The notes: generated by a model from the letters alone, not told the origin. A stretch of DNA of 64,000 bases from Burkholderiales bacterium (GCA_965279075.1 CBDIHI010000009.1:2863-66862), one strand, 5' to 3'. Counted from the first letter of the stretch, positions 11,820 to 64,000 are shown. Translations and numbers: made by a program.

Positions 11820-11846
11820 TGCAGGTGTCCCAACAGGAGAAAGCCG

Positions 11847-35029: not shown

Positions 35030-35199
35030 CGTGCCTCGCAGTGCCGATTGTTTCTTCTGATTACCGCACGTCATATGTGCGCCCCCCGAAACCTGAGTAC
35101 AAATTCTATCATTACGCCTCGCGCAGGCCGATTCGTTGCCCATGCGCGCGACGCCGAAGGCAGTACTGCCCCTGTGGCCTTCAAGCCAAAGCGGCAATT

Positions 35200-47580: not shown

Positions 47581-50500
47581 TTTCGCCTCTGCTTCGCAAG
47601 CGCCGACAGCTTCTCGAGGTTCGCCATCGCATCGGCATAACCCGGGTCGATGCGCAGCGCCTGGCTGAATTCCTCGAACGCCTTGTCATACTCCCCCCTG
47701 CCAGCAAGCATGGCGCCGAGATTGTTGTGGGCTTCTGCATAGTCGGGACTCAACCTCAGCGCCTCCCGGAAATGCGCAATGGCCCTGTCGGATTGCCCCA
47801 CCGCTGCTTCGGCATTTCCGAGGTTGAGGTGCGCCTTTACATATCCGGGCTTCAGCCGCAATGCCTCCCGATAGTGCGCCATGGCCTCACCCAACCGCCC
47901 TGCCGCGGCCTGGGCCTTGCCAAGGTTGAGATGCGCCTCCGCATAGTTAGGCCTGAACCGAAGCGCCGCCCTGTAATGGCCCATGGACTCTTCGGTTCTA
48001 CCCTTTGCCGCAACCACAAGGCCCAGGTTGTAGTGAGCTTCGGCGTAATCGGGTCTGATCCTGAGCGCTTCGCGATAGCTCTGGATGGCCCTGTCCAACT
48101 GGCCGGCTTCGGACAGCGCGTTCCCGAGACCCATATGCACCCGCGCGTTCCCGGGCACCTTGAGGATCGTGTCCTGCCAGAGTCCGACCGCGCTTGCGTA
48201 GTCCTTGTTCCTCTGGAAGGTCAGCCCCCCCAGGACCACTGCCAGCAGCACTGCGGCAGTCAGGCCCAGCGTCAGCGAGGGGGCCTCTATCCACCCACGG
48301 CTCACGGCAGCCCTGCCACCCGCATACACCACCAGCACCAGCAGCGCGATCACCCCCGCCAACGGCAGGTACATCCGGTGTTCGAAGATCGGCCCGGAGA
48401 AGGCATCGAACAAGGGCACGATGCTCGAGGTAGGCGACAGGATCATGAAGAACCACGCCCCCAGGAACGCCCACGGCTTGCGCTTCAGCACGCCCCACAG
48501 CGTCGCCCCCGCAAGGAACGCAATCGCCAGCGCCGCCGGCAGGACCTCCCCCACACCCCCGGGCGCCGGGCGACCGTAGTCCAGCACCAGGGGATGCGGC
48601 CACAGCGTCAGGCGCAGGTAGTGCAGGATCGCGCCCGGTTGCGTCGCCGCGTAGGCCAGCGGCCCCGAATCCACCGGCGCTGCGCCACCCGTGCTGCCCT
48701 TGTCGGCGTACAGCCGCACAAGGTCCCCCGTCGAGGTGATCAGGTACCCAAGCAGCACCCAGGTCAGCGCCATCCCCGCGTACATCCACCACCGCTTCGA
48801 CAGCGCCTCCCGGAACGACCCCGCAAGGAAGTAACGGTCGTACAGCAGCACCACCGCCGGCGCTGTCACCATCACTTCCTTTGCGCTCATCCCCAGCAGG
48901 CACGCGGCAATCGCACCGGCGTACCACCCCGCAGGCCGCGCCGACCCCGCGCCCCGGATCACGCAGTACAGCACCGCGAGGTAGAACAGCCCCACCAGCG
49001 ACTCGGCCCGCTGCGCGATGTAGGTCACCGACTCCGTCTGCAGCGGGTGCACCGCCCACAGAAGCGCGATCGCGAACGACAGCGCCACCGCCGCCCCACC
49101 GAACCGCTCACGCAGCGCCGGTAGCGACAACGAGCGCCTCACCACCCCGAACAGGAGCAGCGCGTTGGCCAGGTGGATCGCAAGATTCACCGCGTGGTAG
49201 CCCCACACGTTCAACCCGCCCAGCGCGTAATTCACCGCAAACGACAGGTTCAGCAGCGGCCGGCCCGTACTCGTCATCCCCGGCGGCGGCGACAGCACCG
49301 CACCCAGCGGCCACAGCCGGACTATGCTCCCGTTGTTCTGTATCACCCCGACATCGTCGAAGACAAACACGCAACGGAAACTGTTCGCGTACACAGCAAG
49401 TATCGCCACAGCCAAAACCAGAACCGGCCATGAGTCCCGCCACATCCACGGCATCCCGACCCCGAGGCTTGACTGCATTCCTCCCGTTGGCTGGCTGTGT
49501 GCCACGGTCTTGGCGCTATGCTTTTTTCGTGGGGGCATGCGAGACGGATGATTGTGAGTTCAGGGCGACTTGCGAGAATTATCGGGCCGGCTTGCCGCCG
49601 AGTTCCGCAAGCCGTTCAAGGTTCTTCCTCGCCTCAATAGAATTCGGGTCAATCCTGAGGGCTTCCTTGAATTGGGCGGCAGCCTTCGCGATTTCGCCCC
49701 TGCCGAAATAGATGACGCCCAGATTGCTGTGCGGCTCCGCGAAATCGGGCCTCAAATTCAGCGCTTGCCGATAGTGCCCGACAGCCTCGTCAGTCGCTCC
49801 GGCCATGGCAAGCAAGTTTCCCAGATTGTTATGTGCCTCGGCAAAGTGGGGTTTCAACTTCAGCGCCTCGCGGTAGTGCGTCATCGCTTCGTCGTGCCGA
49901 CCGGCCGCAGCGAGCGCCACGCCCAGGTTGTTATGTGCATCAGCAAATCCCGGCCTCAGCCTGAGCGCCTCCTGGTAATGGCGAACAGCCTCGCCAGTGC
50001 GACCCAGCGCGACCAAGGCTACCCCTATATTGCTGTAGGGCTCCGCGGAATCGGGCTTCAGCTTCAGCGCTTCGCGATAGTGTGCAATTGCCTCTGGCAT
50101 CAGCCGCATCGCGGTCAACGCCTTCCCGAGGTTGTTGTGAGCTTCGGCGTAATCGGGTCTGATCCTGAGCGCTTCGCGATAGCTCTCGATGGCCCTGTCC
50201 AGCTGGCCGGCTTCGGACAGCGCGTTCCCGAGGCCCATATGCACCCGCGCGTTCCCGGGCACCTTGAGGATCGTGTCCTGCCAGAGTCCGACCGCGCTTG
50301 CGTAATCCTTGTTCCTCTGGAAGGTCAGCCCCCCCAGGACCACTGCCAGCAGCACTGCGGCAGTCAGGCCCAGCGTCAGCGAGGGGGCCTCTATCCACCC
50401 ACGGCTCACGGCAGCCCTGCCACCCGCATACACCACCAGCACCAGCAGCGCGATCACCCCCGCCAACGGCAGGTACATCCGGTGTTCGAAGATCGGCCCG

Positions 50501-51400
50501 GAGAAGGCATCGAACAAGGGCACGATGCTCGAGGTAGGCGACAGGATCATGAAGAACCACGCCCCCAGGAACGCCCACGGCTTGCGCTTCAGCACGCCCC
50601 ACAGCGTCGCCCCCGCAAGGAACGCAATCGCCAGCGCCGCCGGCAGGACCTCCCCCACACCCCCGGGCGCCGGGCGACCGTAGTCCAGCACCAGGGGATG
50701 CGGCCACAGCGTCAGGCGCAGGTAGTGCAGGATCGCGCCCGGTTGCGTCGCCGCGTAGGCCAGCGGCCCCGAATCCACCGGCGCTGCGCCACCCGTGCTG
50801 CCCTTGTCGGCGTACAGCCGCACAAGGTCCCCCGTCGAGGTGATCAGGTACCCAAGCAGCACCCAGGTCAGCGCCATCCCCGCGTACATCCACCACCGCT
50901 TCGACAGCGCCTCCCGGAACGACCCCGCAAGGAAGTAACGGTCGTACAGCAGCACCACCGCCGGCGCTGTCACCATCACTTCCTTTGCGCTCATCCCCAG
51001 CAGGCACGCGGCAATCGCACCGGCGTACCACCCCGCAGGCCGCGCCGACCCCGCGCCCCGGATCACGCAGTACAGCACCGCGAGGTAGAACAGCCCCACC
51101 AGCGACTCGGCCCGCTGCGCGATGTAGGTCACCGACTCCGTCTGCAGCGGGTGCACCGCCCACAGAAGCGCGATCGCGAACGACAGCGCCACCGCCGCCC
51201 CACCGAACCGCTCACGCAGCGCCGGTAGCGACAACGAGCGCCTCACCACCCCGAACAGGAGCAGCGCGTTGGCCAGGTGGATCGCAAGATTCACCGCGTG
51301 GTAGCCCCACACGTTCAACCCGCCCAGCGCGTAGTTCACCGCAAACGACAGGTTCAGCAACGGCCGGCCCGTGCTCGTGATCCCCGGCGGCGGCGACAGC
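46170..51400 (-). repeat. Three near-identical ~1.1-kb direct repeats (cores of TMTC copies E, F, G)
   Basis: Identical shadow ORFs at 46226, 48205 and 50309 (offsets 1979 and 2104 bp); identical protein cores. Confidence 0.9.
47577..49538 (-). CDS. TMTC-like glycosyltransferase + 5 TPR, copy F
   Basis: VFVFDD, HPLQTESVTYI, FEHRMYLP, RNKDY, TPRs. Confidence 0.85.
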   Translation of the reverse strand: MPPRKKHSAKTVAHSQPTGGMQSSLGVGMPWMWRDSWPVLVLAVAILAVYANSFRCVFVFDDVGVIQNNGSIVRLWPLGAVLSPPPGMTSTGRPLLNLSFAVNYALGGLNVWGYHAVNLAIHLANALLLFGVVRRSLSLPALRERFGGAAVALSFAIALLWAVHPLQTESVTYIAQRAESLVGLFYLAVLYCVIRGAGSARPAGWYAGAIAACLLGMSAKEVMVTAPAVVLLYDRYFLAGSFREALSKRWWMYAGMALTWVLLGYLITSTGDLVRLYADKGSTGGAAPVDSGPLAYAATQPGAILHYLRLTLWPHPLVLDYGRPAPGGVGEVLPAALAIAFLAGATLWGVLKRKPWAFLGAWFFMILSPTSSIVPLFDAFSGPIFEHRMYLPLAGVIALLVLVVYAGGRAAVSRGWIEAPSLTLGLTAAVLLAVVLGGLTFQRNKDYASAVGLWQDTILKVPGNARVHMGLGNALSEAGQLDRAIQSYREALRIRPDYAEAHYNLGLVVAAKGRTEESMGHYRAALRFRPNYAEAHLNLGKAQAAAGRLGEAMAHYREALRLKPGYVKAHLNLGNAEAAVGQSDRAIAHFREALRLSPDYAEAHNNLGAMLAGRGEYDKAFEEFSQALRIDPGYADAMANLEKLSALAKQRRN

Positions 51401-51651
51401 ACCGGCCAGAGCGGCCAGAGCCGGACTATGCTCCCGTTGTTCTGTATCACCCCGACATCGTCGAAGACAAACACACCACGGAAGCTATTCGCGTACACAG
51501 CAAGTATCGCTGCAGCGAGTATCACCAACGACAGGGCGACACTGTGGTTTCGGAGGTTGTCACCGGCCATCGCCCCGGGCAGGCCGTGGATCCCCTCCTG
51601 CCCGGCCCGGCGCCCCTTGCGTCGCGGTGTAGTGCGGCTCGGACGCTTCAA
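49579..51651 (-). CDS. TMTC-like glycosyltransferase + 6 TPR, copy G
   Basis: C-terminal part of ORF 49579..52887. Probable start is TTG 51651 just after the ccmI stop (alternative ATG 51570). Confidence 0.82.
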   Translation of the reverse strand: MKRPSRTTPRRKGRRAGQEGIHGLPGAMAGDNLRNHSVALSLVILAAAILAVYANSFRGVFVFDDVGVIQNNGSIVRLWPLWPVLSPPPGITSTGRPLLNLSFAVNYALGGLNVWGYHAVNLAIHLANALLLFGVVRRSLSLPALRERFGGAAVALSFAIALLWAVHPLQTESVTYIAQRAESLVGLFYLAVLYCVIRGAGSARPAGWYAGAIAACLLGMSAKEVMVTAPAVVLLYDRYFLAGSFREALSKRWWMYAGMALTWVLLGYLITSTGDLVRLYADKGSTGGAAPVDSGPLAYAATQPGAILHYLRLTLWPHPLVLDYGRPAPGGVGEVLPAALAIAFLAGATLWGVLKRKPWAFLGAWFFMILSPTSSIVPLFDAFSGPIFEHRMYLPLAGVIALLVLVVYAGGRAAVSRGWIEAPSLTLGLTAAVLLAVVLGGLTFQRNKDYASAVGLWQDTILKVPGNARVHMGLGNALSEAGQLDRAIESYREALRIRPDYAEAHNNLGKALTAMRLMPEAIAHYREALKLKPDSAEPYSNIGVALVALGRTGEAVRHYQEALRLRPGFADAHNNLGVALAAAGRHDEAMTHYREALKLKPHFAEAHNNLGNLLAMAGATDEAVGHYRQALNLRPDFAEPHSNLGVIYFGRGEIAKAAAQFKEALRIDPNSIEARKNLERLAELGGKPAR

Positions 51652-51665
51652 GACCAGCCCCTGCG

Positions 51666-52937
51666 CTAAGGCACGACGCTGTCGATGGCGATCGCCACGC
51701 CCTTGGCGCCGACCTTCACCGGCGAGCTCGTGCCCTGCAAGTCGCCGCTCTGCGAAATCGCGTTGCCGGATTTCGAAATGCGCGCGCTGACCGTGACTTC
51801 TGCAAAGGCGGACAGCTTCAGCTCGGGACTCATCGCAAGCGCATCGTCCAGCACGAACTCGAGCGGCAGGTCCGACACGCGCTTCCTCAGCACCGCCAGC
51901 GGGATGCGCGGCCCGTTCACCGCGCGCGCGACGATGAACAGCGTGTCCTGCGCGCCCGCTTTCGCTGCGAGCCCGGGACTCAGCGTGACGCGCCCGCTCA
52001 CGCTCGCCCCGGCGACCGCCCTGCCCTCCGCAGCCTTTGGCGTCACAGCCTTGGTTTCCGCCCTGGCCACCGGCTTCACCGCCGCGCCAGACGGGGCCTT
52101 GATCCCGCCCAGTTCGCGTGCTTCGGCGATCCCGCCGGCAATCGACTTCCCCATCTCCGAGTCGGCAGGCAGCAGCGGCAGCAGCTTCTCCCAGTAGGCG
52201 AGCGCGCCCGGATAGTCCTTGCGGAAGAACGCCGCCGAGCCCGCCATCGCCAGCGCCTTGGGATGCACCGGGTCGATCTTCAACGCCGCCGTAACGAGCT
52301 CGAGGGCCTTGCCCTCGAGCTTGCGGCCCTGGCTCATTGCCAATGCGTCGGCATAGTCCGCAAGGAAATCCGCGTCGTCGGTGATGGTCTTTGCCGCCTT
52401 CTCGAAAGCCGCCACGGCCTCGGGCATGCGCTGCAGGACATAGTAGGACCGCGCTAGCATCATCCAGCCGCGGGGGTCGTCCGGGTTCTTCGCAAGCCGC
52501 TCGGCAAGGCGCGCGACCATCTCGTCGACCTCGGCGGAGGTCACCTGCTGCTCGGCCGGCAGCGCCTCGGGGCGCAGGCCGTCGGGTTGCCCGATCCACA
52601 GGTACATCGACAGCGCGACCGCCGGGATCAGGATCGCGAGCAAGGCGGCCACCGTGCGGCCGCCAGGTGATTCGGCAAACGTTCCGGCCTGCCCGACCTC
52701 TCCTTCCTCCAGCACCCTGCGTTCGAGCTCCGCCCTGGCGCTGGCGTATTTTTCCGCGGATAGCGTCCCCGCGCCGAGGTCGGCCTCGAGCTCGGCAAGC
52801 TGGGCCCGCAGGATCGCGAGGTTCGACGCGCCGTTGCCCGCACCTGCGGGCGACGCGCGGCGGCGCATCAGGGGTACGACGACCCACAGTACGGCCGCCA
52901 GCGTCATCAATACCGCAAGGAACACGAAGCCCTTCAT
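51666..52937 (-). CDS. ccmI: Cytochrome c biogenesis protein CcmI/CycH (TPR)
   Basis: NLAILRAQLAELEAD...ELERRVL, NPDDPRGWMMLARSY, C-terminal LFIVARA...PLAV...LDDALAM...ARISKSG. Confidence 0.9.
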   Translation of the reverse strand: MKGFVFLAVLMTLAAVLWVVVPLMRRRASPAGAGNGASNLAILRAQLAELEADLGAGTLSAEKYASARAELERRVLEEGEVGQAGTFAESPGGRTVAALLAILIPAVALSMYLWIGQPDGLRPEALPAEQQVTSAEVDEMVARLAERLAKNPDDPRGWMMLARSYYVLQRMPEAVAAFEKAAKTITDDADFLADYADALAMSQGRKLEGKALELVTAALKIDPVHPKALAMAGSAAFFRKDYPGALAYWEKLLPLLPADSEMGKSIAGGIAEARELGGIKAPSGAAVKPVARAETKAVTPKAAEGRAVAGASVSGRVTLSPGLAAKAGAQDTLFIVARAVNGPRIPLAVLRKRVSDLPLEFVLDDALAMSPELKLSAFAEVTVSARISKSGNAISQSGDLQGTSSPVKVGAKGVAIAIDSVVP

Positions 52938-53419
52938 GCCGCGCCTTTGCCCGTGCCGTCGCCGAGCAGTGCCGCAGCGCGCGCGCGCTCCTCGTCCGTC
53001 AGTACCTCGACGGGGCCGGCGCGCTTCGCGCGGCCGCGCAGGTTGCGCCACAGTGCAAAACCCCCTGCCAGCAGCAGCAGGCCCGGACCGAACCACAACA
53101 GCAGCGTAGTGGCCTTCATCGGCGGCTTGTAGAGCACGAAGTCACCGTAGCGCTGCACCATGAACGAGATGATCTCTGCGTCGCTGCGGCCCTGCGCGAT
53201 CTGCTCCCGCACCTGGCGGCGCAGGTCCTGCGCGAGCTCGGCATTGGAATCGGCGATGGTCTGGTTCTGGCAGACGAGGCAGCGCAGGTTCTCCTCGAGT
53301 TCGATGGCGCGCTTCTGCATGACTCGGTCGGCGTTGGTGGGCACCGCGTCGGCCGCCACGGCGAGCACGGGGGCGAACGCCAGCAACAGCGCGCAGAGGC
53401 CTTTGGCGAGCGAGCTCAT
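52934..53419 (-). CDS. ccmH: Cytochrome c biogenesis protein CcmH
   Basis: LRCLVCQNQTIADSNAELA and RYGDFVLYKPP. Confidence 0.94.
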   Translation of the reverse strand: MSSLAKGLCALLLAFAPVLAVAADAVPTNADRVMQKRAIELEENLRCLVCQNQTIADSNAELAQDLRRQVREQIAQGRSDAEIISFMVQRYGDFVLYKPPMKATTLLLWFGPGLLLLAGGFALWRNLRGRAKRAGPVEVLTDEERARAAALLGDGTGKGAA

Positions 53420-53943
53420 GATTTCTGCAGCTGGCGCACGAGCGGCAGGATCTTGCCTTCGAGGGCTTCGCGCGTCACCGGGCCGATCTGCTTGTAGCGG
53501 ATCACGCCGGCGCGGTCGATCACGAAGGTCTCCGGCACGCCGTAGACGCCGTAGTCGATGCCGACGCGCCCGTCCTGGTCCATGACACTCAGCATGTAAG
53601 GGTCGCCGAACTGCTTGAGCCAGGCCTTGGCCTCCTGCGGCTTGTCCTTGTAGTTGAGCCCGACCACCGGCACCACGCGGCTCTTCGCGAGGTCGACCAG
53701 CAGCGGATGCTCCTCCCGGCACGACACGCACCACGAGGCCCAGACGTTAAGCAACCAGACCTGGCCGAGCATGTCCTTCTGCGAGAACTGCATCTCCGGC
53801 TGGGCGAGCTGGGCGAGGCTGAACGGCGGCACGGGTTTGTCCACCAGGGGTGAAGGCACCTCGCGCGGATTCAGCTTCAGACCGACACCGAGGAACACGG
53901 CGAGCACGAGGAAGATCCCGAGGGGGAGGACGAAGCGGTTCAT
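53416..53943 (-). CDS. ccmG: Thiol:disulfide interchange protein CcmG/DsbE
   Basis: LNVWASWCVSCREEHP, GLNYKD, GVYGVPETF. Confidence 0.94.
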   Translation of the reverse strand: MNRFVLPLGIFLVLAVFLGVGLKLNPREVPSPLVDKPVPPFSLAQLAQPEMQFSQKDMLGQVWLLNVWASWCVSCREEHPLLVDLAKSRVVPVVGLNYKDKPQEAKAWLKQFGDPYMLSVMDQDGRVGIDYGVYGVPETFVIDRAGVIRYKQIGPVTREALEGKILPLVRQLQKS

Positions 53944-55976
53944 GCGCCCTGCACTCCCCTGCTTCCCTTCGCGGGCCCCTCGACGCGCACCGTGGCGGGC
54001 ACCGTGGCGGCGGAGCCGGGCTCCTCCCTCCGCGCCGCCGGGCGATAGCGGCGGTCGGACAGCGCGAGCAGCCCGCCCAGCGCCATGAGCGCGCAACCAC
54101 CCCAGATCCACGTGACGAATGGCTTGTAATAGATCCTCACGCTCCAGGCCCCGTTCTCGACCGGCTCGCCCAGGGAGACGTAGAGGTCACCGAGGAATCC
54201 GGTCTCGATGTCGGCCTCGGTCATCGGCATGTTGCTGACGTTGTAGGCGCGCTTCTCCGGACGCAGCACGGTGACTTCCTTGCCATCCCGGGAAACACGC
54301 ACGGTGCCGCGCGAGGCGCGGTAGTTGGGGCCCTTGGCGGCCTGCGCGCCGTCGAAGCGGAACGTATAACCGCCTACGGTCACCGTGTCGCCCACCGCCA
54401 TGCGCACGTCCCGCTCCACCTCGTAACCCTTCACCAGGGTGACCCCGACGATGAACACCGCCACGCCGAAGTGCGCGAGGAGCATCCCGTAGTATCCGCC
54501 CGGCTGCGAGGCGAACTTCGCGCCCAATCCCCCGGGAAGCCGTGCGAAGCGCTCCCGCAGGTTTACCAGGCCCGCCACGAAGATCCAGAAAGCCAGTGCA
54601 AGGCCGAAGCTGACCAGCGCTCGCCACTGCGAGAAATCCCAGCCGGCCACGGCCAGCGGCACGAGCAGGGCGGAGACCACGCTCACCGCCAGCGCCCAGC
54701 GGAGCTTGCGCGCGAGTTCAGGCAGGCTCGCCTCCTTCCAGCGCGCGATCGGCCCGATCCCCATCAGGAACAGCGCGGGCGTCATGAGCGGGACGAACAC
54801 CGCCTCGAAATACGGCGGCCCCACCGAGATCTTGCCGAGGTTGAGCGCGTCGAGGAACAGCGGATAGAGCGTGCCGAGCAGCACGGAGCCGGCCGCCACC
54901 ACGAGGAAAACGTTGTTGGTGAGCAGCATCGACTCGCGCGACACCGGCTCGAACGTCCCGCCCAGCCCGACCTTGGGCGCGCGCCACGCAAACAGCGCCA
55001 GCGACCCGCCGATCACGATCACGAGGAAGATCAGGATGAAGATGCCACGCCGCGGGTCGGTGGCGAAGGCGTGAACCGAAGTCAGCACCCCCGAGCGCAC
55101 GAGGAAGGTGCCGAGCAGGCTCAGGCTGAAAGCGCAGATCGCGAGCAGCACGGTCCAGCTGCGGAAGCCCCCGCGCTTTTCGGTCACGGCGAGCGAATGC
55201 AGCAGTGCCGTACCGACCAGCCAGGGCATGAAGGAAGCGTTCTCGACCGGGTCCCAGAACCACCAGCCGCCCCAGCCCAGTTCGTAGTACGCCCAGCCGC
55301 TGCCCAGCGCGATGCCGCAGGTGAGGAAACACCAGGCGAGGATCGTCCAGGGCCGCGACCAGCGCGCCCAGGTGGCGTCGAGCCTGCCGCCCAGCAGGGC
55401 GGCGATCGCAAACGCAAACGCAACCGAGAACCCGACGTAGCCCATGTAGAGCATCGGCGGGTGGATCACCATGCCCGGATCCTGCAGCAGCGGGTTCAGG
55501 TCGCGCCCGTCCTCGGCCGCCGGGAGAAGGCGCGCGAAGGGGTTCGAGGTCAGCAGCAGGAACAGCAGGAAGCCCGTGGACACGAGGCCCATGACGCCGA
55601 TCACGCGCGCCACCATCTGCTCCGGCAGGTGGCGGCTGAAGAGCGTCACCGCCGCGGTCCACACCGCCAGCATCAGGACCCACAGCAGCATTGATCCTTC
55701 GTGGGAGCCCCAGGTAGCCGCGATGCGGTACTGCAGCGGCAGCTGGGAATTCGAGTTCGTGGCGACGTTCAGCACGGAGAAGTCGTTGCTTGCGAACGAC
55801 CAGGCCAGGCATACGAAGGCGATGGCGACGAACACGAACTGGCCCTGGGCCGCAGGACGCGCCACGGCCATCCAGGCCGGCACGCCACGCGCGGCCCCTG
55901 CGATCGGCAATATCCCCTGGGCGAGCGCGAGCGTCAGGGCGAGGATGAGGGAAAAGTGTCCGAGTTCGGGAATCAC
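53940..55976 (-). CDS. ccmF: Heme lyase CcmF
   Basis: MIPELGHF, WGSHEGS, HPPMLYMGY, WAYYELGWGGWWFWDPVENAS, SVHAFA. Confidence 0.97.
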   Translation of the reverse strand: MIPELGHFSLILALTLALAQGILPIAGAARGVPAWMAVARPAAQGQFVFVAIAFVCLAWSFASNDFSVLNVATNSNSQLPLQYRIAATWGSHEGSMLLWVLMLAVWTAAVTLFSRHLPEQMVARVIGVMGLVSTGFLLFLLLTSNPFARLLPAAEDGRDLNPLLQDPGMVIHPPMLYMGYVGFSVAFAFAIAALLGGRLDATWARWSRPWTILAWCFLTCGIALGSGWAYYELGWGGWWFWDPVENASFMPWLVGTALLHSLAVTEKRGGFRSWTVLLAICAFSLSLLGTFLVRSGVLTSVHAFATDPRRGIFILIFLVIVIGGSLALFAWRAPKVGLGGTFEPVSRESMLLTNNVFLVVAAGSVLLGTLYPLFLDALNLGKISVGPPYFEAVFVPLMTPALFLMGIGPIARWKEASLPELARKLRWALAVSVVSALLVPLAVAGWDFSQWRALVSFGLALAFWIFVAGLVNLRERFARLPGGLGAKFASQPGGYYGMLLAHFGVAVFIVGVTLVKGYEVERDVRMAVGDTVTVGGYTFRFDGAQAAKGPNYRASRGTVRVSRDGKEVTVLRPEKRAYNVSNMPMTEADIETGFLGDLYVSLGEPVENGAWSVRIYYKPFVTWIWGGCALMALGGLLALSDRRYRPAARREEPGSAATVPATVRVEGPAKGSRGVQGA

Positions 55977-55995
55977 GGGGCCGCCTGGGTCCGGG

Positions 55996-56445
55996 TTACT
56001 GCGTGGAAACGCTCTTCTGCGCCTTCTGAGCCTGCTCGATCGCGTGGCCCGCCTCGGGCGGCATGTAATTCTCGTCGTGCTTGGCGAGCACGTCGGTGGC
56101 CCGGAATACGCCGTCCGGCCCGAGCCGGCCCTGCGCGACCACGCCTTTGCCCTCCTTGAACAGGTCCGGGAGAATGCCGGTGAAGACGACCGGGATGACT
56201 TTCGCGGTGTCGGTCACGTTGAAATTCACCGTCAGGCCGTCGGGTTGCCGCTTCAGGCTGCCGGATTCGACCATGCCGCCGATGCGGAACGCGCGATCGA
56301 CCGGCGCCTCGTTCGAGGCCACCTGGCTCGGGCTGAAGAAGAACACGAGGTTGCTCTGGAAGGCGTTCAGCACAAGCGCCGCGGCAATGCCCAGCACCGC
56401 CAGTCCGGCGGCTATGAGGGCGATACGCTTGTGTCGAGGTTTCAA
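55996..56445 (-). CDS. ccmE: Heme chaperone CcmE
   Basis: [31 protein letters not shown] (heme-binding HxxxY); TTG start at 56445. Confidence 0.95.
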
Positions 56446-56546
56446 GACGCCACCAGGAGAGAGAGCGGGGGATGCGGAACGCAGGGGCATTTTACGCCAT
56501 GCCGACCGAACGGCTCGCAAACACCTACCACGGCGCGAATGTACTA

Positions 56547-56574
56547 TTGACGTTTGCACGCCAGCCATTAACAT
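56547..56574 (+). promoter_or_regulatory. Probable sigma70 promoter for the multiheme cytochrome operon
   Basis: TTGACG-N16-TAACAT, followed by hairpin CGCCGCA-TAG-TGCGGCG (56582-56598). Confidence 0.5.
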
Positions 56575-56632: not shown

Positions 56633-57562
56633 ATGTCAATACGCTATGCACTCCTCACGCTGGTTTTCCTAGGGTTTGCCGCGGGTACGGCCAAGGCTGC
56701 CCCGTTCGCCGAGGGCTTCCGCAAGTGCCAGGAATGCCACGAGCCGGAAGTCGAGGTCTGGAAGAAAACCAAACACTCGACCGGCTACAACGAGATCCAC
56801 AAGAAGGCCTCGGCCGCCAAGATCCTCGCGGCGGCCGGCGGCGGCGCGAGCATGCGCCAGAACGCCACCTGCGTGATGTGCCACTACACGGAAACCAAGG
56901 CTTCCGAGACCGCCAAGCCGCAGGTCGCCTCCGGCCCGTCCTGCGAAAGCTGCCACGGCGCCTCCTCGGAGTTCCGCGATATCCACAACTTCTACGGCGA
57001 CGGGGTGGCGGACGCGAGCAAGGAGTCGCCCGCCAACAAGGCCAAACGGCTGGCCGCCGCCGCGAAGGCCGGCATGATCTGGTCGTTCATGACCTACGAC
57101 ATCGCCGCGAACTGCAACGAATGCCACGGCCTCGCCAACCCGAAGCTCAAGGGCGACGTTCTCGCCAAGATGCTCGACGCGGGGCACCCCGGCGAACCAG
57201 AGTTCGAACTCGTGCGCTACTCGCAAGGCAGCGTTCGCCACCGCTACTACCCGCCGAACGTGGATAAGAACGCCGAGATGAACGCGGCCGAGCTGTCGCG
57301 CCTGTATGTCATCGGCCAGGCCGCCAAGCTGGTTTCGGCCATCACCGCAGCCGGCAAGGGCGGCGGGGAGAAGTACGCTGCGCTGCAAAAGAAGCGCGAG
57401 GCGGATGCCCGCGCCGCGCTGCAGGCCGTCGCCGACGTCCCGGAAGTCAAGGCCGTCCTGGACAAGCCCGCAGCCGACACAGCGCGCAAGCTTGCGGACG
57501 CGCTCAAGGGCAAGGACCTGTCGGCCAAGGTGAAGCTGCCCGCCAAGACGACGTACAAGTGA
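56633..57562 (+). CDS. Periplasmic tetraheme cytochrome c (c554-like family)
   Basis: Signal peptide MSIRYALL...AKA; CQECH, CVMCH, CESCH, CNECH. Confidence 0.88.
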
Positions 57563-57629
57563 AGCATGCACCGCCCCCGCTGAGGGATGCGAGGGCGCAT
57601 GTTTCCCGACCTGGCGCGGGGCGCGTCCC

Positions 57630-59366
57630 GTGAGTGAAGCCCAGCTCATGGAGCGACCGCGGCGCTGGGACGCCCCGTTCGACCGGGACATGTCCGACGC
57701 AGTCGTCGACATGCTGCTCGGCCGGCCCGAGTTTGCTTCGATAGATTCGGGACGCTTCCCGGCGGCGGCGCCTTTGCGCGGCATCCTGCAGAACGACTGC
57801 CGGATCGTCACCTACGCACCGGGCGACATCGTCGTCCGCGAAGGCGACTACGGAAACTCCGCGTTCCTCGTCCTGTCCGGCGCCCTGCGGGTCGTGCTCC
57901 CCCCCGGCCTGCCCCGCCAGGTGCTCGGCCGGGCGGCCGACAGGAAGCGCGACGCCTTCAGCGTGCTGCGCGACATGCTTACCCACTCCAGGATCCCGGA
58001 GGTACGCGACACGAGCCTCCACCGCGCGGCGGCGGCCGTCCACGTGGGCGGCGCCGGGGAGCCGAGGGACTCCTTGCTGCGCGTGCGCGACGCCGCCAGC
58101 CTGTTCGGGCCGGGCGTCGATCCGGCCGCCGACCCGTCCCGCATCCCCCCTCTCGCCGAAACCTTCAAGACCGGGCTGTTGCCGGCCGGCACGCTGTTCG
58201 GCGAAGTGGCGGCGCTCGGGCGCGTGCAGCGCTCGGCGACCGTCTACGCCGAATCCGGTTGCAGCGTGCTCGAGATGCGCTGGCAGGCGCTGCGCGACAT
58301 CAAGAACCGCGACGACACGTGGCGCGACCGCATCGAGCAGGGCTACCGCCAGAACCAGCTGCGCACGCACCTCGCCGAACACCCCCTCCTCGCCGGGATC
58401 GACGCGAAGACCCTGCAGACGATCGCCGACCGCACGCTGTTCGAGACCTACGGCTCGTTCGAATGGAACGTCGGCTTCAAGAGCGGCCGGCGCGACGAGC
58501 GCCCCGCGCCCGAGTCGGAGCCCGCGGTGGCCAGGGAAGGCGACTACCCCGACGGGCTGCTGCTCGTGATCGGCGGCTTCGGCCGGGTGTCGAGCGGCCT
58601 CGGCCACGGCGCACGCACACTGACCTACCTGCGCGAAGGCGACCACTTCGGGCTCGACGAGCTGCTCGAAGCCTGGAAGGCGGGGGCCGACTGCGCCTAC
58701 GAGACCAGCCTGACCGCGCTCGGCTACCTGCACGTGCTGCGCATCCCGTTTTCGGTGCTGGCGGACCTCGTTTTCCCCAAGCTCGCCGCCCCCGCCCGGC
58801 GCCTGATCGACGCGGCCAGCCGGCCGATCGCCGACGACGCCTTCCTCGAGTGGGCGGTCGAGCAGCGCTTCATCAATGGCACGAAGACCATGCTCATTGA
58901 CCTGGAGAAATGCACCCGCTGCGACGACTGCGTGCGCGCCTGCGCGGATACGCACGGCGGCAACCCGAAGTTCATCCGCCACGGCCAGAAGCTGGGCAAC
59001 TGGATGGTCGCGAACGCCTGCATGCAGTGTGTCGACCCGGTGTGCATGATCGGCTGCCCCACCGGCGCGATCCACCGGACGATGGAGGGCGGCGTGGTCG
59101 TGATCAACGACCTCACCTGCATTGGCTGCGGGACCTGCGCCAATGCGTGCCCGTACGACAACATCCGGCTGGTGCCGATCCGCGAGAAGGACGGCCAGCA
59201 GGTGCTCGACCCCGTTTCGCGCGAGGCGATCGTCAAGGCCACCAAGTGCGACCTGTGCGCCTCCCTGCCGAGCGGCCCCTCATGCGAGCGCGCCTGCCCC
59301 CACGACGCCCTGAAGCGCGTGGACATCCAGTCGCTCATCCGGCGCGCCGCGCAGATCGAATCCTGA
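57630..59366 (+). CDS. Two cNMP-binding domains fused to a 4x[4Fe-4S] ferredoxin (NrfC/DmsB-like) domain
   Basis: VREGDYGNS...FGEVAALGRVQRSATV; degenerate second domain; CTRCDDCVRAC, CMQCVDPVCMIGC, CIGCGTCANAC, CDLC...CERAC. Confidence 0.88.
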   Translation: MSEAQLMERPRRWDAPFDRDMSDAVVDMLLGRPEFASIDSGRFPAAAPLRGILQNDCRIVTYAPGDIVVREGDYGNSAFLVLSGALRVVLPPGLPRQVLGRAADRKRDAFSVLRDMLTHSRIPEVRDTSLHRAAAAVHVGGAGEPRDSLLRVRDAASLFGPGVDPAADPSRIPPLAETFKTGLLPAGTLFGEVAALGRVQRSATVYAESGCSVLEMRWQALRDIKNRDDTWRDRIEQGYRQNQLRTHLAEHPLLAGIDAKTLQTIADRTLFETYGSFEWNVGFKSGRRDERPAPESEPAVAREGDYPDGLLLVIGGFGRVSSGLGHGARTLTYLREGDHFGLDELLEAWKAGADCAYETSLTALGYLHVLRIPFSVLADLVFPKLAAPARRLIDAASRPIADDAFLEWAVEQRFINGTKTMLIDLEKCTRCDDCVRACADTHGGNPKFIRHGQKLGNWMVANACMQCVDPVCMIGCPTGAIHRTMEGGVVVINDLTCIGCGTCANACPYDNIRLVPIREKDGQQVLDPVSREAIVKATKCDLCASLPSGPSCERACPHDALKRVDIQSLIRRAAQIES

Positions 59367-59394
59367 GAAAGACCTGAGCGACGCCCCAGCCGAC

Positions 59395-60267
59395 ATGCGT
59401 GAACTCACCATCCTCGCCGGGACCGACCCGGCCGCCGCCCGGCGCGCCGAATTGCGCCGCGCATGGCGGTTGCTCGGGGTCTTCTGGCTCCTCGCCTTCG
59501 TCCTGTGGCTCGCGGTCACCCTGCTTGCCTGGCACGCGGAGCGCAGCCTCGGCAAGGCCTCGGTGATCACGGGCTATGCGCTGTTCGCTGTGATCCTGTC
59601 GCTCGGTTTCTTCAAGGTCAGGAAGCGCCTGCTGGTGCTGCCGCTGGGCACGGTACGCGAATGGATGCTCGGGCACGTGGTGCTCGGCACGCTCAGCGTG
59701 CCGCTCTATTTCCAGCATACCGGCGGCCTGTGGCCCGAAGGCCGCTACGAGCAGGTGATCGCGCTCGCGTTCTATACGGTGACCCTGACGGGAATCGCCG
59801 GCTACGCCCTGCAGCGGCTGCTCCCGAGGCGCCTCGCCGACATCGAGGGCGAGGTCATCTACGAGCGCATACCGGGCGAGATCGCGATGCTGCGCGATGA
59901 AGTCGAGGCGCTGGTCCTCAAGGCGGTGCGGGAGCTCGGCTCCGACACCCTCGGCCGCTACTACGAGGAGTCGCTCGAGTGGTACTTCTGGCGGCCGCGC
60001 TTCCTCATCGGCCACGTGCTCGGCAGCGGGCGCAGCGCGAGCTGGATCCGCGGGCGCATCACCGCCCTGCGGCGCTACCTGAACGAGGGCGAGCGGGCCT
60101 ACCTGCTGCAGATCGAGCAACTCGCGCTGAGGAAGAGCCGGCTCGACGCCCACTACGCCCTGCAGAGCGTGCTCAAGTTCTGGCTGTTCGTCCACGTGCC
60201 CGCCGCCGTCCTGCTGGTGCTGCTCGCCTGCTGGCACCTGCTCGTAGTCAACATTTACGCCCGATGA
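59395..60267 (+). CDS. Integral membrane protein, possible heme b-binding electron-transfer subunit
   Basis: About 5 hydrophobic segments with His in WMLGHV, FQHTG, WLFVHVP and WHLL. Confidence 0.65.
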   Translation: MRELTILAGTDPAAARRAELRRAWRLLGVFWLLAFVLWLAVTLLAWHAERSLGKASVITGYALFAVILSLGFFKVRKRLLVLPLGTVREWMLGHVVLGTLSVPLYFQHTGGLWPEGRYEQVIALAFYTVTLTGIAGYALQRLLPRRLADIEGEVIYERIPGEIAMLRDEVEALVLKAVRELGSDTLGRYYEESLEWYFWRPRFLIGHVLGSGRSASWIRGRITALRRYLNEGERAYLLQIEQLALRKSRLDAHYALQSVLKFWLFVHVPAAVLLVLLACWHLLVVNIYAR

Positions 60268-62102
60268 AAGACCGCGGAAGCTTCGGACACAAGGTCAGCG
60301 CCTACGAGCGGCCGAACCTGCCCTTTCTCTGCGGCCGCAGCGGGATGTGGAAGAAGGCTTGCTGGCAGGGCCCGGGCGTCGGCGGCCAGTGCGGCGGCCA
60401 GTCCGAATGCTCGCCGGCGCGGATCGGTGACCGCTGGGAATGCCGGCGGCCCAAGCGCGCCGGCGGCACCTGCGCCGAAGGCCCGATGCCGGACGGGACC
60501 TGCGGGCACTGCCAGGCGCCGTGCGCCCCCCGCCGCAACATCCGTACGCTGCGGGCGCATTTCTCCGTGGTGGCGGTACTGGCGCTGCTGGTGATGCTCA
60601 TCATCGGCGTGGACCCGCGGGAGAAAGCGGCAGTCGGCAGCGCGGCCCTCGACGCTGGCAACCTGACCAGCGTGCATTCGGGATTCACGCGCGAGCAGGG
60701 CTGCGTCGCCTGCCATACCGGGCACGCCAAGGATGCCGGCAGCTGGCTGCTGGCGGCGTTTCGCACCAACGACCCCAGCACGGGCTGCATCGGGTGCCAT
60801 GACTTCAGCGGCCCGGTGATGAAGGCGCACAACCAGGAGCACCCGAAGCGCCCGGGTCTCGCGGAGGTTTCCTGCGCGAGCTGCCACACCGAACACAAGG
60901 GCGCCGCCTTCAAGATCGCCGAGGTGCCGGACTACGCCTGCGCCAACTGCCACGAAAAATCCTTCGACAGTTTCGTATCAGGGCATCCCGCGTTCCCGGC
61001 GGGCTACCCCTATACGCGCCCGGGCACGATCTACTTCGACCACGCCAAGCACCTGAAGGACTACTTCGTCGACCCGAAGCGCACCAAGGGCCCGGACCGC
61101 GACGCGAAATTCGCCGCGGCCGCGCGCACGAAGTGCACCGTCTGCCACTCGATCGAGGGCGCCACCCGCGAGGTCAAGCCCAAGCCTTACGCGGAGATCT
61201 GCGCCGGCTGCCATTCGGGGCAGATAACGAAGCGCGAACTCGTGCTCTTCGAGCCGGAGAAAGTCACCGCTGCGGCCTCGATGCTGCTCGGGCTCGACAA
61301 GGACGGCGACGAGGCCGAAACGAAGCAGCGCCTGGCGAAACTGTGGGGCTCGATGGCGCGCTCGGGCGCGGAGGCGCTCGCCGAATTCGTCCCCCCGCCG
61401 GCCGTCGATGCCGTGGGCATGAAACAGCCCGCGGACGCGCTCTATGCCGGGTTGGGAGGGCAGGTTGTGCGCGAGGCCGGCGCGGCCTGGGCCGCCGGGC
61501 GCAGCGTGGCCGCGGTCGGCGCGAAGGCAGAGGCGCCCGGCTGGGCGGCGGGCGAGAACTCCGAAGGCAACCCGGCGCTCTTCTACCGCGCCGCCGGCCA
61601 CGCGGATCCGGTCATGAAGGCGTGGATCGAGTCCCTGCGCGTCGCGGTACAGGACAAGGACGGCGCCAAACGGGCCCGCGCCAAGGAGGCGATGAACGAT
61701 TTCCTCGACAGCCAGACGGGCCCGGGCGCCTGCGGCAAGTGCCACTCGGCGGCGCTGCGCACGAACCAGCCGGGCCGCGGCGCGGCGTGGGGCTACACGG
61801 GGCCGGACACCCGTCCGCTGAACCGTTACACGCATGCCAAGCACCTCGGCCTGGTCGATCCCGACGCGGGCTGCACCACCTGCCACGAAATGAACGCGCA
61901 ATCGAAGTACCCGAAGTACTTCACCTCGAAGGCATCGGCCAAGGTGGACTACGAGAGCAACTTTTCCGGGATCCGCAAGGAAACCTGTGTTGAGTGCCAT
62001 AGAGAGGGTCAGGTAAACTCCGCGTGTCAGGTGTGCCACACGTACCACTTGCCTCACCGGTTCAACCTGGGCTTCAGACAGAAGGGGGGAGTAACAAAAT
62101 GA
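60264..62102 (+). CDS. Membrane-anchored decaheme cytochrome c with a Cys-rich N-terminal domain
   Basis: ATGA overlap. Ten CxxCH motifs (CVACH, CIGCH, CASCH, CANCH, CTVCH, CAGCH, CGKCH, CTTCH, CVECH, CQVCH) follow one TM helix; nine non-heme Cys precede it. Confidence 0.88.
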   Translation: MKDRGSFGHKVSAYERPNLPFLCGRSGMWKKACWQGPGVGGQCGGQSECSPARIGDRWECRRPKRAGGTCAEGPMPDGTCGHCQAPCAPRRNIRTLRAHFSVVAVLALLVMLIIGVDPREKAAVGSAALDAGNLTSVHSGFTREQGCVACHTGHAKDAGSWLLAAFRTNDPSTGCIGCHDFSGPVMKAHNQEHPKRPGLAEVSCASCHTEHKGAAFKIAEVPDYACANCHEKSFDSFVSGHPAFPAGYPYTRPGTIYFDHAKHLKDYFVDPKRTKGPDRDAKFAAAARTKCTVCHSIEGATREVKPKPYAEICAGCHSGQITKRELVLFEPEKVTAAASMLLGLDKDGDEAETKQRLAKLWGSMARSGAEALAEFVPPPAVDAVGMKQPADALYAGLGGQVVREAGAAWAAGRSVAAVGAKAEAPGWAAGENSEGNPALFYRAAGHADPVMKAWIESLRVAVQDKDGAKRARAKEAMNDFLDSQTGPGACGKCHSAALRTNQPGRGAAWGYTGPDTRPLNRYTHAKHLGLVDPDAGCTTCHEMNAQSKYPKYFTSKASAKVDYESNFSGIRKETCVECHREGQVNSACQVCHTYHLPHRFNLGFRQKGGVTK

Positions 62103-63907
62103 ATACGCTCAAGAAGGCGCGACCGGGACTGGGTGCGCTCCTCAAGGCCACCCTCCTGCAAGGGCTCGCCATGGCCTTGTGCCTGGCCTTCGCCTATCCC
62201 GGCGACGCCGGCGCGCAGAGAAAGCCTCGCGCCGCCGCGCCGGCCGCCGCCGAGGGCACCGACCCCCACGCCAAGGTGATGGAGGACGACAAGTACCCCA
62301 GCGCGAGCAAGTGCAAGACCTGCCACGCGCAGATCTACGACGAGTGGCGCAGTTCCAACCACGCGTACGCCGGCATCTCGCCGATGTTCCACAAGTTCGA
62401 GCAGAGGATCACCGAACTGGCGCCCACCATCGGCTCGTTCTGCGTGCGCTGCCACATGAGCGTGGGCACCGCGCAGGGCGAGGACCGCGCGCTGCCGCTC
62501 TGGAAGCGCAGCCAGGTCTCGCGTGAGGGCGTCACCTGCATCAGTTGCCACCGCGTCAAGGAGGAGTACTCCAAGGCCAACGGCGAGCGGCGCATCGAGC
62601 CGGGCTCGATCCACGACCCGGTCTATGGCCCGTTCGACGGCGACGGCGTCGCCGAAGTGGTGAAGAACCCCGGCAAGTACCGTGTCGCGACCAACAGCGA
62701 GGCGCGCGGCACCAGGATCCACAACAGCGCGGTCAAGTTCGAGCAGATCTCAACCTCCGAGTTCTGCGTGTCCTGCCACCAGGTGGCGGTGAACGTCGGC
62801 ATCAAGCTCGAGGTGGTGTGGGACCAGTACCGCTCCTCGCCCGCGCGCGAGCAGGGCATCACCTGCCAGGATTGCCACATGGGCAAGACGCCGGGCAAGG
62901 CGGACGGCTACGCCACCGGCCCGGTCGCGAGGATGGGCAAGGAGACCGTCAACACCACCCGCAAGCACGCCAACCACGCGTTCTACGGCCCCGGCTACCC
63001 GATCGCCCACCCGGGCGTGTTCCCGCACAACGAGAACGCCGAGAAGTGGGGCATGGAGGACTGGCTGAAGTTCGACTACCGCGCCAAGTGGGGCAGCGAG
63101 GAGTTCGAGACCGCCCTGAAGGCCGGCAAGCTGCGGGCCACCTTCCCGAAGGCGTGGTCCGACGCCGCCGACCGGGCGAGCGCCTGGGAAGTGGTGCAGG
63201 AGAACCTCGAGGCCATCGAGAAGAAGAAGGTGCAGAGAAAGCAGGTCATGGAGAACGGCTCGCGCATCGACGGACCCTTTTTCGTGTCGGACCTCAAGGC
63301 CGGCGAACCGCTCAGGTTCTCCTACAAGATCACGAACACGGACCCCGGCCACAACCTGCCCTCCGGTTCGCTCGGCGCGCAGCCGGAGATCTGGCTGAAC
63401 GTGGCCCTGATCGGGCCCGACGGCAAGCGCGTGTGGGAGAGCGGGTACCTGGACTCCAACGGCGACATGGCGGACCTGCATTCGCTCGACGTGCGCGCCG
63501 GCAAGGTTCCGCACGACGATCAGCTGTTCAACCTGCAGACCAAGTTCCTGACCACCAACGTGAAGGGCACCGAGCGCGAGATGTACCTGCCGGTCAACTT
63601 CGACGTGGACCAGCTGCCGATGCTGCGCCCGGCCGCCCAGCCCGTGACGGTGATGAACCACCCGCCGGGCGTGCGCATGGAGCAGCGGTCCATCCCCCCG
63701 CTCGGCAGCAAGGTGGCGCAGTACAAGGTGCCGGCGGGGCTGGTCGCGGCACCGGGCAAGTACCGGCTCGCGGTGCGCATGCGCAGCCGCGCCGAGCCCA
63801 TCTACTTCATGCGGTTCGTGGGCGCCACCAGCGACATGGAACGCTCGATGAACGAGTGGATGCTCGACATCCATCCCTACAGCGTCGAGTTCGAGGTGAA
63901 GAAATGA
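62099..63907 (+). CDS. Pentaheme cytochrome c (c554-like N-terminus) with a C-terminal beta-rich domain
   Basis: Signal/anchor peptide; CKTCH, CVRCH, CISCH, CVSCH, CQDCH; GHNLPSG motif. Confidence 0.88.
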   Translation: MNTLKKARPGLGALLKATLLQGLAMALCLAFAYPGDAGAQRKPRAAAPAAAEGTDPHAKVMEDDKYPSASKCKTCHAQIYDEWRSSNHAYAGISPMFHKFEQRITELAPTIGSFCVRCHMSVGTAQGEDRALPLWKRSQVSREGVTCISCHRVKEEYSKANGERRIEPGSIHDPVYGPFDGDGVAEVVKNPGKYRVATNSEARGTRIHNSAVKFEQISTSEFCVSCHQVAVNVGIKLEVVWDQYRSSPAREQGITCQDCHMGKTPGKADGYATGPVARMGKETVNTTRKHANHAFYGPGYPIAHPGVFPHNENAEKWGMEDWLKFDYRAKWGSEEFETALKAGKLRATFPKAWSDAADRASAWEVVQENLEAIEKKKVQRKQVMENGSRIDGPFFVSDLKAGEPLRFSYKITNTDPGHNLPSGSLGAQPEIWLNVALIGPDGKRVWESGYLDSNGDMADLHSLDVRAGKVPHDDQLFNLQTKFLTTNVKGTEREMYLPVNFDVDQLPMLRPAAQPVTVMNHPPGVRMEQRSIPPLGSKVAQYKVPAGLVAAPGKYRLAVRMRSRAEPIYFMRFVGATSDMERSMNEWMLDIHPYSVEFEVKK

Positions 63908-64000
63908 GCCCCCGCCTGCAGGCCCGCCGAGGCATCCCGCTGGCATGGCGCAGCCTGTGCGCCGCCACGCTCCTCGCCCTGGGGATCGGCACCCCGGCCG
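63904..64000 (+). CDS. Start of a further exported protein of the operon (partial)
   Basis: ATGA overlap; MSPRLQARRGIPLAWRSLCAATLLALGIGTPA looks like a signal peptide. Confidence 0.6.
   Translation, partial: MSPRLQARRGIPLAWRSLCAATLLALGIGTPA

Follow-up and report, generated by a model that had tools for sequence, protein, structure and literature searches.

A complete ptdDEFGABC cluster in a Burkholderiales genome encodes a candidate cyclic nucleotide-modulated electron conduit

The window analysed here is a 64,000-nucleotide stretch of DNA from a Burkholderiales bacterium (GCA_965279075.1 CBDIHI010000009.1:2863-66862; G000:C9:2863-66862 in our numbering), at whose end lies ptd, a gene cluster for multiheme cytochromes and other redox proteins. 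ORF calling revealed six packed open reading frames (ORFs) on the plus strand from position 56633 to the window end; flanking DNA was analysed as a 20-kb stretch, L003, whose positions equal window positions minus 56137. The first gene, ptdD (56633..57562, +), encodes an exported, c554-like tetraheme cytochrome c of 309 amino acids (aa), and is followed by ptdE (57630..59366, +; 578 aa), whose cytoplasmic product joins two cyclic nucleotide monophosphate (cNMP)-binding domains to a HydN/DmsB-type domain predicted to hold four [4Fe-4S] clusters. Next come ptdF (59395..60267, +; 290 aa) for a five-helix inner-membrane protein, probably a di-heme cytochrome b, and ptdG (60264..62102, +; 612 aa), which encodes a cytoplasmic domain with eight cysteines (8-Cys domain, residues 14-97), one transmembrane (TM) helix and a periplasmic decaheme domain. 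An exported pentaheme cytochrome c (ptdA, 62099..63907, +; 602 aa) and an outer-membrane β-barrel (ptdB, 63904..64000 for its first 32 codons and on to L003:9305, +; 512 aa) complete the six. Past the window end lies ptdC (L003:9322-10599; 425 aa), whose product is an FAD/NAD(P)H reductase anchored in the membrane and bearing a 2Fe-2S domain; the next gene is cyclase-like/FHA (L003:10601-11548; 315 aa). The junctions F/G, G/A and A/B (-4 nt each), D/E (67 nt) and E/F (28 nt) fit with one operon; ptdB and ptdC are spaced by 16 nt, and ptdC and the cyclase-like/FHA gene by 1 nt. Over the ptd proteins of the window we counted 19 CxxCH and no CxxCK motifs, against a chance mean of 0.003-0.06 CxxCH per protein in composition-preserving shuffles. 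A preliminary description of the locus had proposed a six-ORF operon with at least 19 c-type hemes, made up of a tetraheme, a cNMP/four-cluster Fe-S protein that lacks an export signal, a membrane protein, a membrane-bound decaheme, a pentaheme and a further exported protein, and all of these genes, domains and heme motifs were recovered. Its remark that no porin is visible within the window is literally true, but the sixth ORF is itself the barrel PtdB, and the downstream genes that it had left for inspection turned out to be the PtdB porin and, just past the window, the NAD(P)H-type reductase PtdC.

The seven components match, one for one, the parts of ptdABCDEFG, a cluster named by Elbon et al. 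(bioRxiv 10.1101/2023.11.21.568154), and the locus is nearly certainly a complete ptdDEFGABC cluster. In the accessible portion of that preprint, the parts are a pentaheme PtdA with a C-terminal β-sandwich, a porin PtdB, an FAD/NAD(P) oxidoreductase PtdC, a periplasmic tetraheme PtdD, a cNMP-binding and 4Fe-4S protein PtdE, a transmembrane "ferric reductase-like" PtdF and a decaheme PtdG, with high transcription of ptdA and ptdB reported for metagenome-assembled genomes (MAGs) of marine Alphaproteobacteria from an ocean oxygen-deficient zone. Because the cluster is thus already named and described bioinformatically, it is not a new kind of system. A full-text literature search returned Elbon et al. 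as the sole ptd paper, within a coverage that possibly excludes a journal version and subscription papers, and the accessible text of PMC11475568 does not mention the cluster. As far as the accessible portion of the preprint goes, our analysis differs from it in several points: PtdE is assigned two 4Fe-4S clusters there, whereas we find cysteines for four; PtdG is described as periplasmic, whereas our analysis gives it an anchoring TM helix and, on the cytoplasmic side, the 8-Cys domain; and the label given to PtdF was not supported by our sequence tests. The gene order here is D-E-F-G-A-B-C, and the hosts depicted there come from saline habitats only (Alpha- and Gammaproteobacteria, Nitrospirales and Planctomycetes), in contrast to the Burkholderiales host described here; our wider locus set adds Verrucomicrobiota, Elusimicrobia, Omnitrophota and SAR324. 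With the same limit, the 16 cysteines and the domain-1-only cassette of PtdE, the four histidines and failed family tests of PtdF, the 8-Cys domain of PtdG, the barrel class of PtdB and the FHA-linked class III cyclase neighbours go beyond the published description.

A PtdE profile search of species-representative genome contigs identified at least 572 confirmed relatives, of which the best 80 loci were examined, with ptd gene presence scored by tblastn at E ≤ 1e-5. PtdE was found in 80 of these loci, PtdF in 79, PtdG in 77, PtdD in 74, PtdC in 65, PtdA in 58 and PtdB in 55; all seven genes are present in 52 and the order of the window in 28, and many incomplete loci stop at contig edges. Across the set, D-E-F-G form a fixed block and A-B-C are mobile as a unit. 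Clustering of 346 other nearby ORFs yielded no extra neighbour family in more than 10 of the 80 loci. The loci span at least seven phyla, with records from Beta-, Gamma- and Alphaproteobacteria, Verrucomicrobiota, Planctomycetota, Nitrospinaceae, SAR324, Elusimicrobia and Omnitrophota; their record labels include groundwater and Lake Baikal, marine Rhodospirillaceae MAGs (L028, L029, L038) carry homologous syntenic clusters, which indirectly supports homology to the ptd proteins of Elbon et al., and the named cultured hosts include Hwanghaeella grinnelliae Gri0909 and Candidatus Uabimicrobium amorphum. The host genome of the window (67-70% GC), whose nearest named relatives are Burkholderiales and other Betaproteobacteria MAGs, is 98.75% complete and carries its ptd copy on a 432-kb contig. 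Within this lineage the distribution is patchy: at E ≤ 1e-50, PtdE was detected in seven of 17 other genomes of the genus and in none of seven genomes of other genera in the family or 16 of other families in the order (completeness 56-100%).

PtdE combines sensory-type and redox domains, with a strong match to cNMP_binding (PF00027; 75.8 bits versus a cut-off of 27.5) and 4Fe-4S dicluster domains in Pfam, and with neither a signal peptide nor a Tat motif. Its Fe-S domain contains 16 cysteines in four ferredoxin-type groups, all invariant among 50 aligned sequences and kept in the tails of 79 of 80 homologues, which would be enough for four [4Fe-4S] clusters. Residues 422-570 align end to end with HydN in NCBIfam (E 6.4e-17), but at 61.6 bits versus a cut-off of 260 PtdE is not a HydN equivalog. 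The first cNMP-binding domain carries the phosphate-binding cassette F190-G-E ... R198 ... P-R201-[ST]-A-[ST], each residue of which is retained in 67-79 of 79 homologues (F190, G191, R198 and T/S204 in 79, E192 and R201 in 78). This domain, the only one of the two with such a canonical cassette, is probably a binding site for cAMP or cGMP through which electron entry would be tuned.

The preliminary description suggested a survey for linked cyclases, and class III cyclase genes do recur beside the cluster. Indeed, the commonest accessory neighbour of ptd loci is an FHA-linked class III cyclase gene (a representative matches Pfam Guanylate_cyc at E 3.7e-17 and FHA), and the full-length neighbours carry the metal-binding and Asn/Arg-type motifs. 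An HMM built from eight neighbouring cyclases and run on 81 loci matched 12 of them. Ten matches were strong (E ≤ 5e-34) and lie 33-1996 nt from a ptd gene, in six Planctomycetota, one SAR324 and three Alphaproteobacteria; of the remaining two, one is 8.5 kb away and the other, a weak match, is the cyclase-like/FHA gene of L017. In total, a cyclase-homology gene lies within 2 kb in 14 of the 81 loci, representing about four separate lineages. In the cyclase-like/FHA protein next to our ptdC, residues 40-171 match the solved cyclase Ma1120 (E 8.2e-7) and the NCBIfam LipJ cyclase model (E 8.3e-5), and relatives of the gene follow ptdC in L005, L017 and L034. Since the loci are not independent, we regard the co-location as suggestive support for second-messenger control of ptd.

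In L003, a TagH-like protein with FHA and T6SS_FHA_C domains (11640-13436, +) is encoded 91 nt after the cyclase-like/FHA gene, placing two FHA proteins in a row; three further downstream genes with family matches, encoding a peptidase, an acyl-CoA ligase and, on the minus strand, an unrelated protein, are not type VI secretion genes. A Ser/Thr protein kinase gene lies near ptd in L051 and L055 (Planctomycetota, Ca. Uabimicrobium), which fits the recurring FHA domains. The five Pirellulaceae loci L065, L066, L069, L072 and L081 share the order ptdC-D-E-F-G, with no ptdA or ptdB in the DNA examined and a PtdG that lacks the 8-Cys domain; in four of them (not L072) a divergent FHA-cyclase gene is found 33-264 nt away.

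For the membrane protein PtdF, we aligned the window protein with 54 of 77 complete homologues. In these 55 sequences H94, H108, H267 and H281 are invariant, forming two pairs of residues 14 apart in predicted TM3 and TM5, and an AlphaFold2 model (mean pLDDT 94.9) shows five long hydrophobic helices and a cytoplasmic helical insert of about 110 residues. The histidine pairs suggest two b hemes. By the positive-inside rule, H94 and H267 would be close to the cytoplasm and H108 and H281 close to the periplasm, a placement that gives the geometry of a two-heme transmembrane wire. PtdF of the window matches no Pfam or NCBIfam family, and its near-length homologues (207 at E ≤ 0.001) have no Pfam domain and, where named, are called "hypothetical" except for one fragment. 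Membership of the ferric-reductase family was not supported by sequence: PF01794 gave no match at E ≤ 1, only three of the 55 homologues matched it weakly (best E 0.032), a search of the same genome with PF01794 (E ≤ 1e-10) found only a different gene, and comparison of the PtdF profile with 12 MsrQ-type proteins by hhalign gave a probability of 0.6% (E 0.093). Other weak matches were to DUF4405 (13 of 55) and Ni_hydr_CYTB (six of 55). A protein-atlas label, "ferric reductase like", on the nearest clusters was given no weight, as they have no common Pfam domain and may be PtdF's own family. Longer fused forms, for example with an FNR module, were not found, which is weak evidence by this search. 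A wide fold search was topped by the helical sensors McpS (Z 9.7) and TorS (Z 9.2), taken as generic long-helix similarity.

Of the three multiheme cytochromes, PtdD, with a signal peptide and a match to Pfam Cytochrome_C554 (E 8e-14), has four CxxCH motifs, as do 69 of 73 complete homologues, and four conserved histidines outside them (H48, H118, H185, H203). PtdG, with a single TM helix, has ten motifs, a count shared by 66 of 70 complete homologues, and ten further conserved histidines. These extra histidines would allow bis-His ligation of all ten PtdG and all four PtdD hemes, which suits relay proteins. PtdA has a signal peptide, five CxxCH motifs (also in 54 of 57 complete homologues), no CxxCK, six to seven conserved extra histidines and a weak match to the solved cytochrome c552 of T. 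tepidum (5ze8; E 7e-6). Ahead of the TM helix of PtdG lie eight cysteines (C23, C33, C43, C49, C60, C70, C80 and C87), arranged as two C-x9-C-x9-C-x5/6-C repeats. All eight are invariant in 47 aligned sequences, a set without L019, L032, L048 and L065, where the domain is aberrant or lacking, and each is retained in 62-64 of 68 complete homologues; the domain is absent from five Pirellulaceae loci and reduced to a single repeat in two loci. A search of 1.84 billion representatives found it in 549 proteins, and all but three of the 150 listed carry it at the N-terminus of PtdG-sized proteins or fragments; the protein atlas held no named look-alike. The 8-Cys domain is probably a further metal site, cytoplasmic and at the PtdE/PtdF junction.

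At the outer membrane, PtdB has a signal peptide and a C-terminal ...RRKF, and matched no Pfam or NCBIfam family. Its AlphaFold2 model, built with 39 aligned homologues, has a mean pLDDT of 84.4 and about 18-20 long strands, and a Foldseek search of the PDB gave 276 hits at E ≤ 0.001; foremost among them are the 18-strand barrels C. jejuni MOMP, OprD/Occ, Wzi, AlgE and chitoporin (E 1e-11 to 1e-8). The modelled protein is thus an outer-membrane barrel that folds like those of OprD/AlgE type. On the cytoplasmic side, PtdC has an N-terminal TM helix, the Pfam domains FAD_binding_6, NAD_binding_1 and Fer2, and a reductase module resembling flavohemoprotein (E 5e-76); its cysteines C377, C382, C385 and C413 are conserved without exception in 61 homologues.

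Domain content, cofactor motifs, motif conservation, synteny and the fold class of PtdB are observed; what follows on heme b in PtdF, on carrier order and flow direction, on the binding of nucleotides and on contacts between subunits is inferred from them. With slightly better than even confidence, we read Ptd as a quinone-independent, cNMP-modulated conduit that is fed by cytoplasmic NAD(P)H and runs outward. PtdC, an FNR-type flavoprotein with a plant-type 2Fe-2S domain, would oxidise NAD(P)H and move electrons from FAD to 2Fe-2S; PtdE would pass them along four [4Fe-4S] clusters; and they would cross the inner membrane on two stacked b hemes of PtdF. The decaheme PtdG and tetraheme PtdD, together 14 c hemes, could serve as a periplasmic relay, from which the five c hemes of PtdA would hand electrons on to an acceptor at or in the mouth of the PtdB barrel. 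At the first cNMP domain of PtdE, cAMP or cGMP may tune electron entry, the signal coming in some lineages from the adjacent FHA-linked class III cyclase. As PtdB belongs to the small-barrel class, electrons may be delivered in or next to the mouth of the barrel, or else may reach, within the periplasm, a substrate admitted by PtdB. Three points favour the outward direction: the reductase module is of a type that oxidises NAD(P)H, no quinol-dehydrogenase model reaches its cut-off (NapC/NirT, NrfD and NrfH were sought in all ptd proteins with Pfam and NCBIfam), and electrons flowing inward would have both the membrane potential and the redox scale against them. The wire proposed in the preliminary description, from cytoplasmic Fe-S by way of putative heme b to the multihemes of the periplasm, with a cNMP-binding module at its entry, holds up in its architecture and is strengthened by the PtdF histidines, the PtdE cassette and the recurring cyclases.

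Comparison with known systems places Ptd apart from each of them. The preliminary description had seen no match to Nrf, Mtr/Mto, Hao or Qrc/ACIII organisation, and those models of these systems that appeared in our searches were all far below their cut-offs. MtrCAB, PioAB and MtoAB resemble Ptd in placing multiheme cytochromes, a decaheme included, beside an outer-membrane barrel gene, but their barrel is a large MtrB-type porin, whereas PtdB belongs to no Pfam family and is a smaller OprD/AlgE-type barrel; the DmsE/MtrA-family decaheme model (decahem_SO) gave PtdA 39.1 bits versus a cut-off of 192.2 and did not appear among the matches of PtdG, and Ptd, unlike MtrCAB-type systems, has no CymA-type quinol dehydrogenase, electron entry being cytoplasmic. 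NOX, STEAP and MsrQ offer a functional analogy, in which an FNR-type NAD(P)H flavoprotein and a membrane protein with two His pairs on two helices export electrons; in Ptd, however, each module is a protein of its own, a four-cluster Fe-S protein would stand between the two, and PtdF has five predicted helices and an insert. The four-cluster ferredoxin subunits HydN, FdnH (of FdnH-FdnI), HybA, DmsB and NrfC are also related in type: the C-terminal domain of PtdE aligns in addition with DmsB, DsrO, HybA and a formate dehydrogenase beta subunit, and PtdE, as in FdnH-FdnI-type systems, is paired with a di-heme b membrane protein, here a probable one. All PtdE scores were far below the family cut-offs, and in contrast to these subunits PtdE is cytoplasmic, has neither a Tat signal nor a molybdo- or NiFe-partner, and is fused to cNMP-binding domains. 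The geometry of Ptd is that of formate dehydrogenase-N turned inside out. Geobacter ExtHIJKL likewise places a pentaheme cytochrome beside a porin gene, and the ExtKL model matched PtdA at E 4.9e-9, but with 35 bits versus a cut-off of 250; no gene of the locus matched an ExtH or ExtJ model, and no selenocysteine is present. A kinship of ExtKL and c552 is discussed in the accessible part of PMC11976967. The "novel porin-MHC" cluster of freshwater Verrucomicrobia, as far as the accessible text of PMC5615132 describes it, is a different system with an eight-heme periplasmic cytochrome.

Several points weigh against the outward, nucleotide-controlled conduit. The evidence for heme b in PtdF is a single feature, the spacing of its histidines; its model gave no Foldseek match in the PDB at E ≤ 0.001, and its VIA-align scores for STEAP4 (Z 7.8, rmsd 3.8, 147 aligned), CybB (Z 7.6) and NOX2 (Z 6.9, rmsd 4.7, 128 aligned) lie in a range that is uninformative for helical bundles. 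PtdF could also react with quinones, a behaviour known from some di-heme b proteins, and the six homologues with a weak Ni_hydr_CYTB match bear on this. PtdB is much smaller than MtrB, so that a cytochrome may not thread it and the last step could be periplasmic. As for control by nucleotides, the second cNMP domain of PtdE lacks the conserved Arg (the matching position is Q, E or R), no cyclase was seen in the neighbouring DNA of 67 of 81 loci, and the cyclase-like gene of our own locus was missed by both Pfam Guanylate_cyc (E ≤ 0.05) and the neighbour-cyclase HMM. Its alignment with Ma1120 places Ala and Gly at the positions of the catalytic Asn and Arg, and the protein may be catalytically inactive. 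The 80 loci share ancestry, and their counts therefore overstate independent support. Finally, Elbon et al. state in the accessible portion of their preprint that the function of ptd "remains completely unknown".

The alternative that fares best keeps the same inner-membrane module and differs at the periplasmic end: PtdA would be a reductase of a small soluble substrate (an N, S or Se oxyanion or peroxide), PtdB its substrate channel, and nothing would leave the cell. The fold of PtdB, shared with the substrate channels OprD/Occ, AlgE and chitoporin, speaks for it, as do the weak resemblance of PtdA to pentaheme families (ExtKL, T. tepidum c552 and pieces of NrfB/NrfH/NapC) and the host groups among the 80 loci, which are mostly aerobic and not classic metal reducers. 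Elbon et al. also raise a possible nitrogen-cycle role and place PtdA in the NrfA cluster of orthologous groups (COG), according to the accessible portion of the preprint. Assignment of PtdA as an NrfA nitrite reductase was rejected, however, as it has no CxxCK and reaches only 12.6 bits (E 0.067) with Cytochrom_C552 versus a cut-off of 24.1; moreover, its extra histidines could make all five hemes six-coordinate, and 19 relay hemes would be a large investment for such a reaction. We judge a periplasmic reductase unlikely, if still the main competitor.

Electrons could instead flow inward, from Fe(II), reduced humics or nitrite-derived donors outside the cell or in the periplasm to cytoplasmic NAD(P)+ or ferredoxin-type acceptors. 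Porin-cytochrome systems such as MtoAB and PioAB can run either way, a Nitrospinaceae locus (L050) is among the 80, and the accessible portion of Elbon et al. places ptd genes in nitrite oxidisers. Such flow would be doubly uphill, however, towards the negative cytoplasmic side and up to the potential of NAD(P)H, and Pfam and NCBIfam revealed no energy-coupling subunit in the cluster; most host groups are also heterotrophs, and we consider an inward conduit improbable. A signalling device, in which the heme chain would report periplasmic or external redox state to PtdE and set cNMP or phospho-signalling with FHA, cyclase and kinase partners, would account for the recurring FHA-cyclase, FHA protein and Ser/Thr kinase genes and for the joining of sensory-type domains with redox clusters in PtdE, but it appears very improbable given that PtdE has no output domain recognisable by Pfam or NCBIfam, that a sensor would hardly call for a dedicated NAD(P)H reductase, 19 c hemes and a porin, and that ptdA and ptdB are highly transcribed in marine MAGs, as the accessible part of the preprint reports.

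Returning to the outward conduit, a bolder formulation, which we put forward tentatively and regard as rather doubtful, casts Ptd as the bacterial equivalent, made of several subunits, of NADPH oxidase and ferric reductase: it would oxidise NAD(P)H and reduce an extracellular acceptor without recourse to quinones, switched by cAMP/cGMP at PtdE, fed by an FHA-linked cyclase signal and equipped with the previously undescribed 8-Cys metal domain of PtdG. If this were true, common aerobic bacteria of water and soil that carry out extracellular reduction or produce superoxide with no known enzyme could be doing so through Ptd. The cluster is widespread, with at least 572 PtdE relatives in one-genome-per-species contigs. 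Should a wire from cytoplasm to outer membrane avoid the quinone pool and bear a second-messenger domain, cells would have in it a new means of controlling how they dump reducing power or conduct redox chemistry outside. The four histidines of PtdF, the 16 cysteines of PtdE and eight of PtdG, and the cassette arginines are features that can be tested directly.

Directly upstream of ptdD and divergent from it lie ccmI, ccmH, ccmG, ccmF and ccmE (51669-56448, -). The preliminary description had correctly placed ccm genes next to the cluster but called them its own. Because ccmF is the only copy found in the genome and ccm genes are nearby in only two of the 80 related loci, ccmEFGHI are general maturation genes of the cell and not dedicated to ptd. 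A putative sigma-70-like promoter, TTGACG-16 nt-TAACAT (56547..56574, +; L003 410-437), is located 59 nt upstream of ptdD. It is the only such site in 14 kb, where shuffles give a mean of 0.7 sites. In a comparison of nine genomes, the six upstream regions from the same genus retain both of its hexamers; inspection of the nine by eye, without a formal motif search, showed no palindromic regulator site. Between ccmE and ptdD, a further block, GCATTTTACGCCA (window ~56480-56495), is conserved in the same number of same-genus upstream regions and could be the -10 region of a divergent ccmE promoter or a regulator site.

Elsewhere in the window, a 4482-aa ORF (19717-33162, -) with strong negative GC skew and no Pfam family at E ≤ 1e-5 adjoins the gene of a ShlB/FhaC-type transporter with a POTRA_2 domain (33308-35197, -). 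Judged by sequence, the two resemble the halves of a two-partner secretion system whose passenger is giant and lacks annotation. Between this pair and the ccm genes, seven consecutive paralogues of ~570-760 aa with C-terminal TPR repeats occupy 37762-51669 (-); several of their ends overlap or abut, and the series reaches up to the ccm genes.

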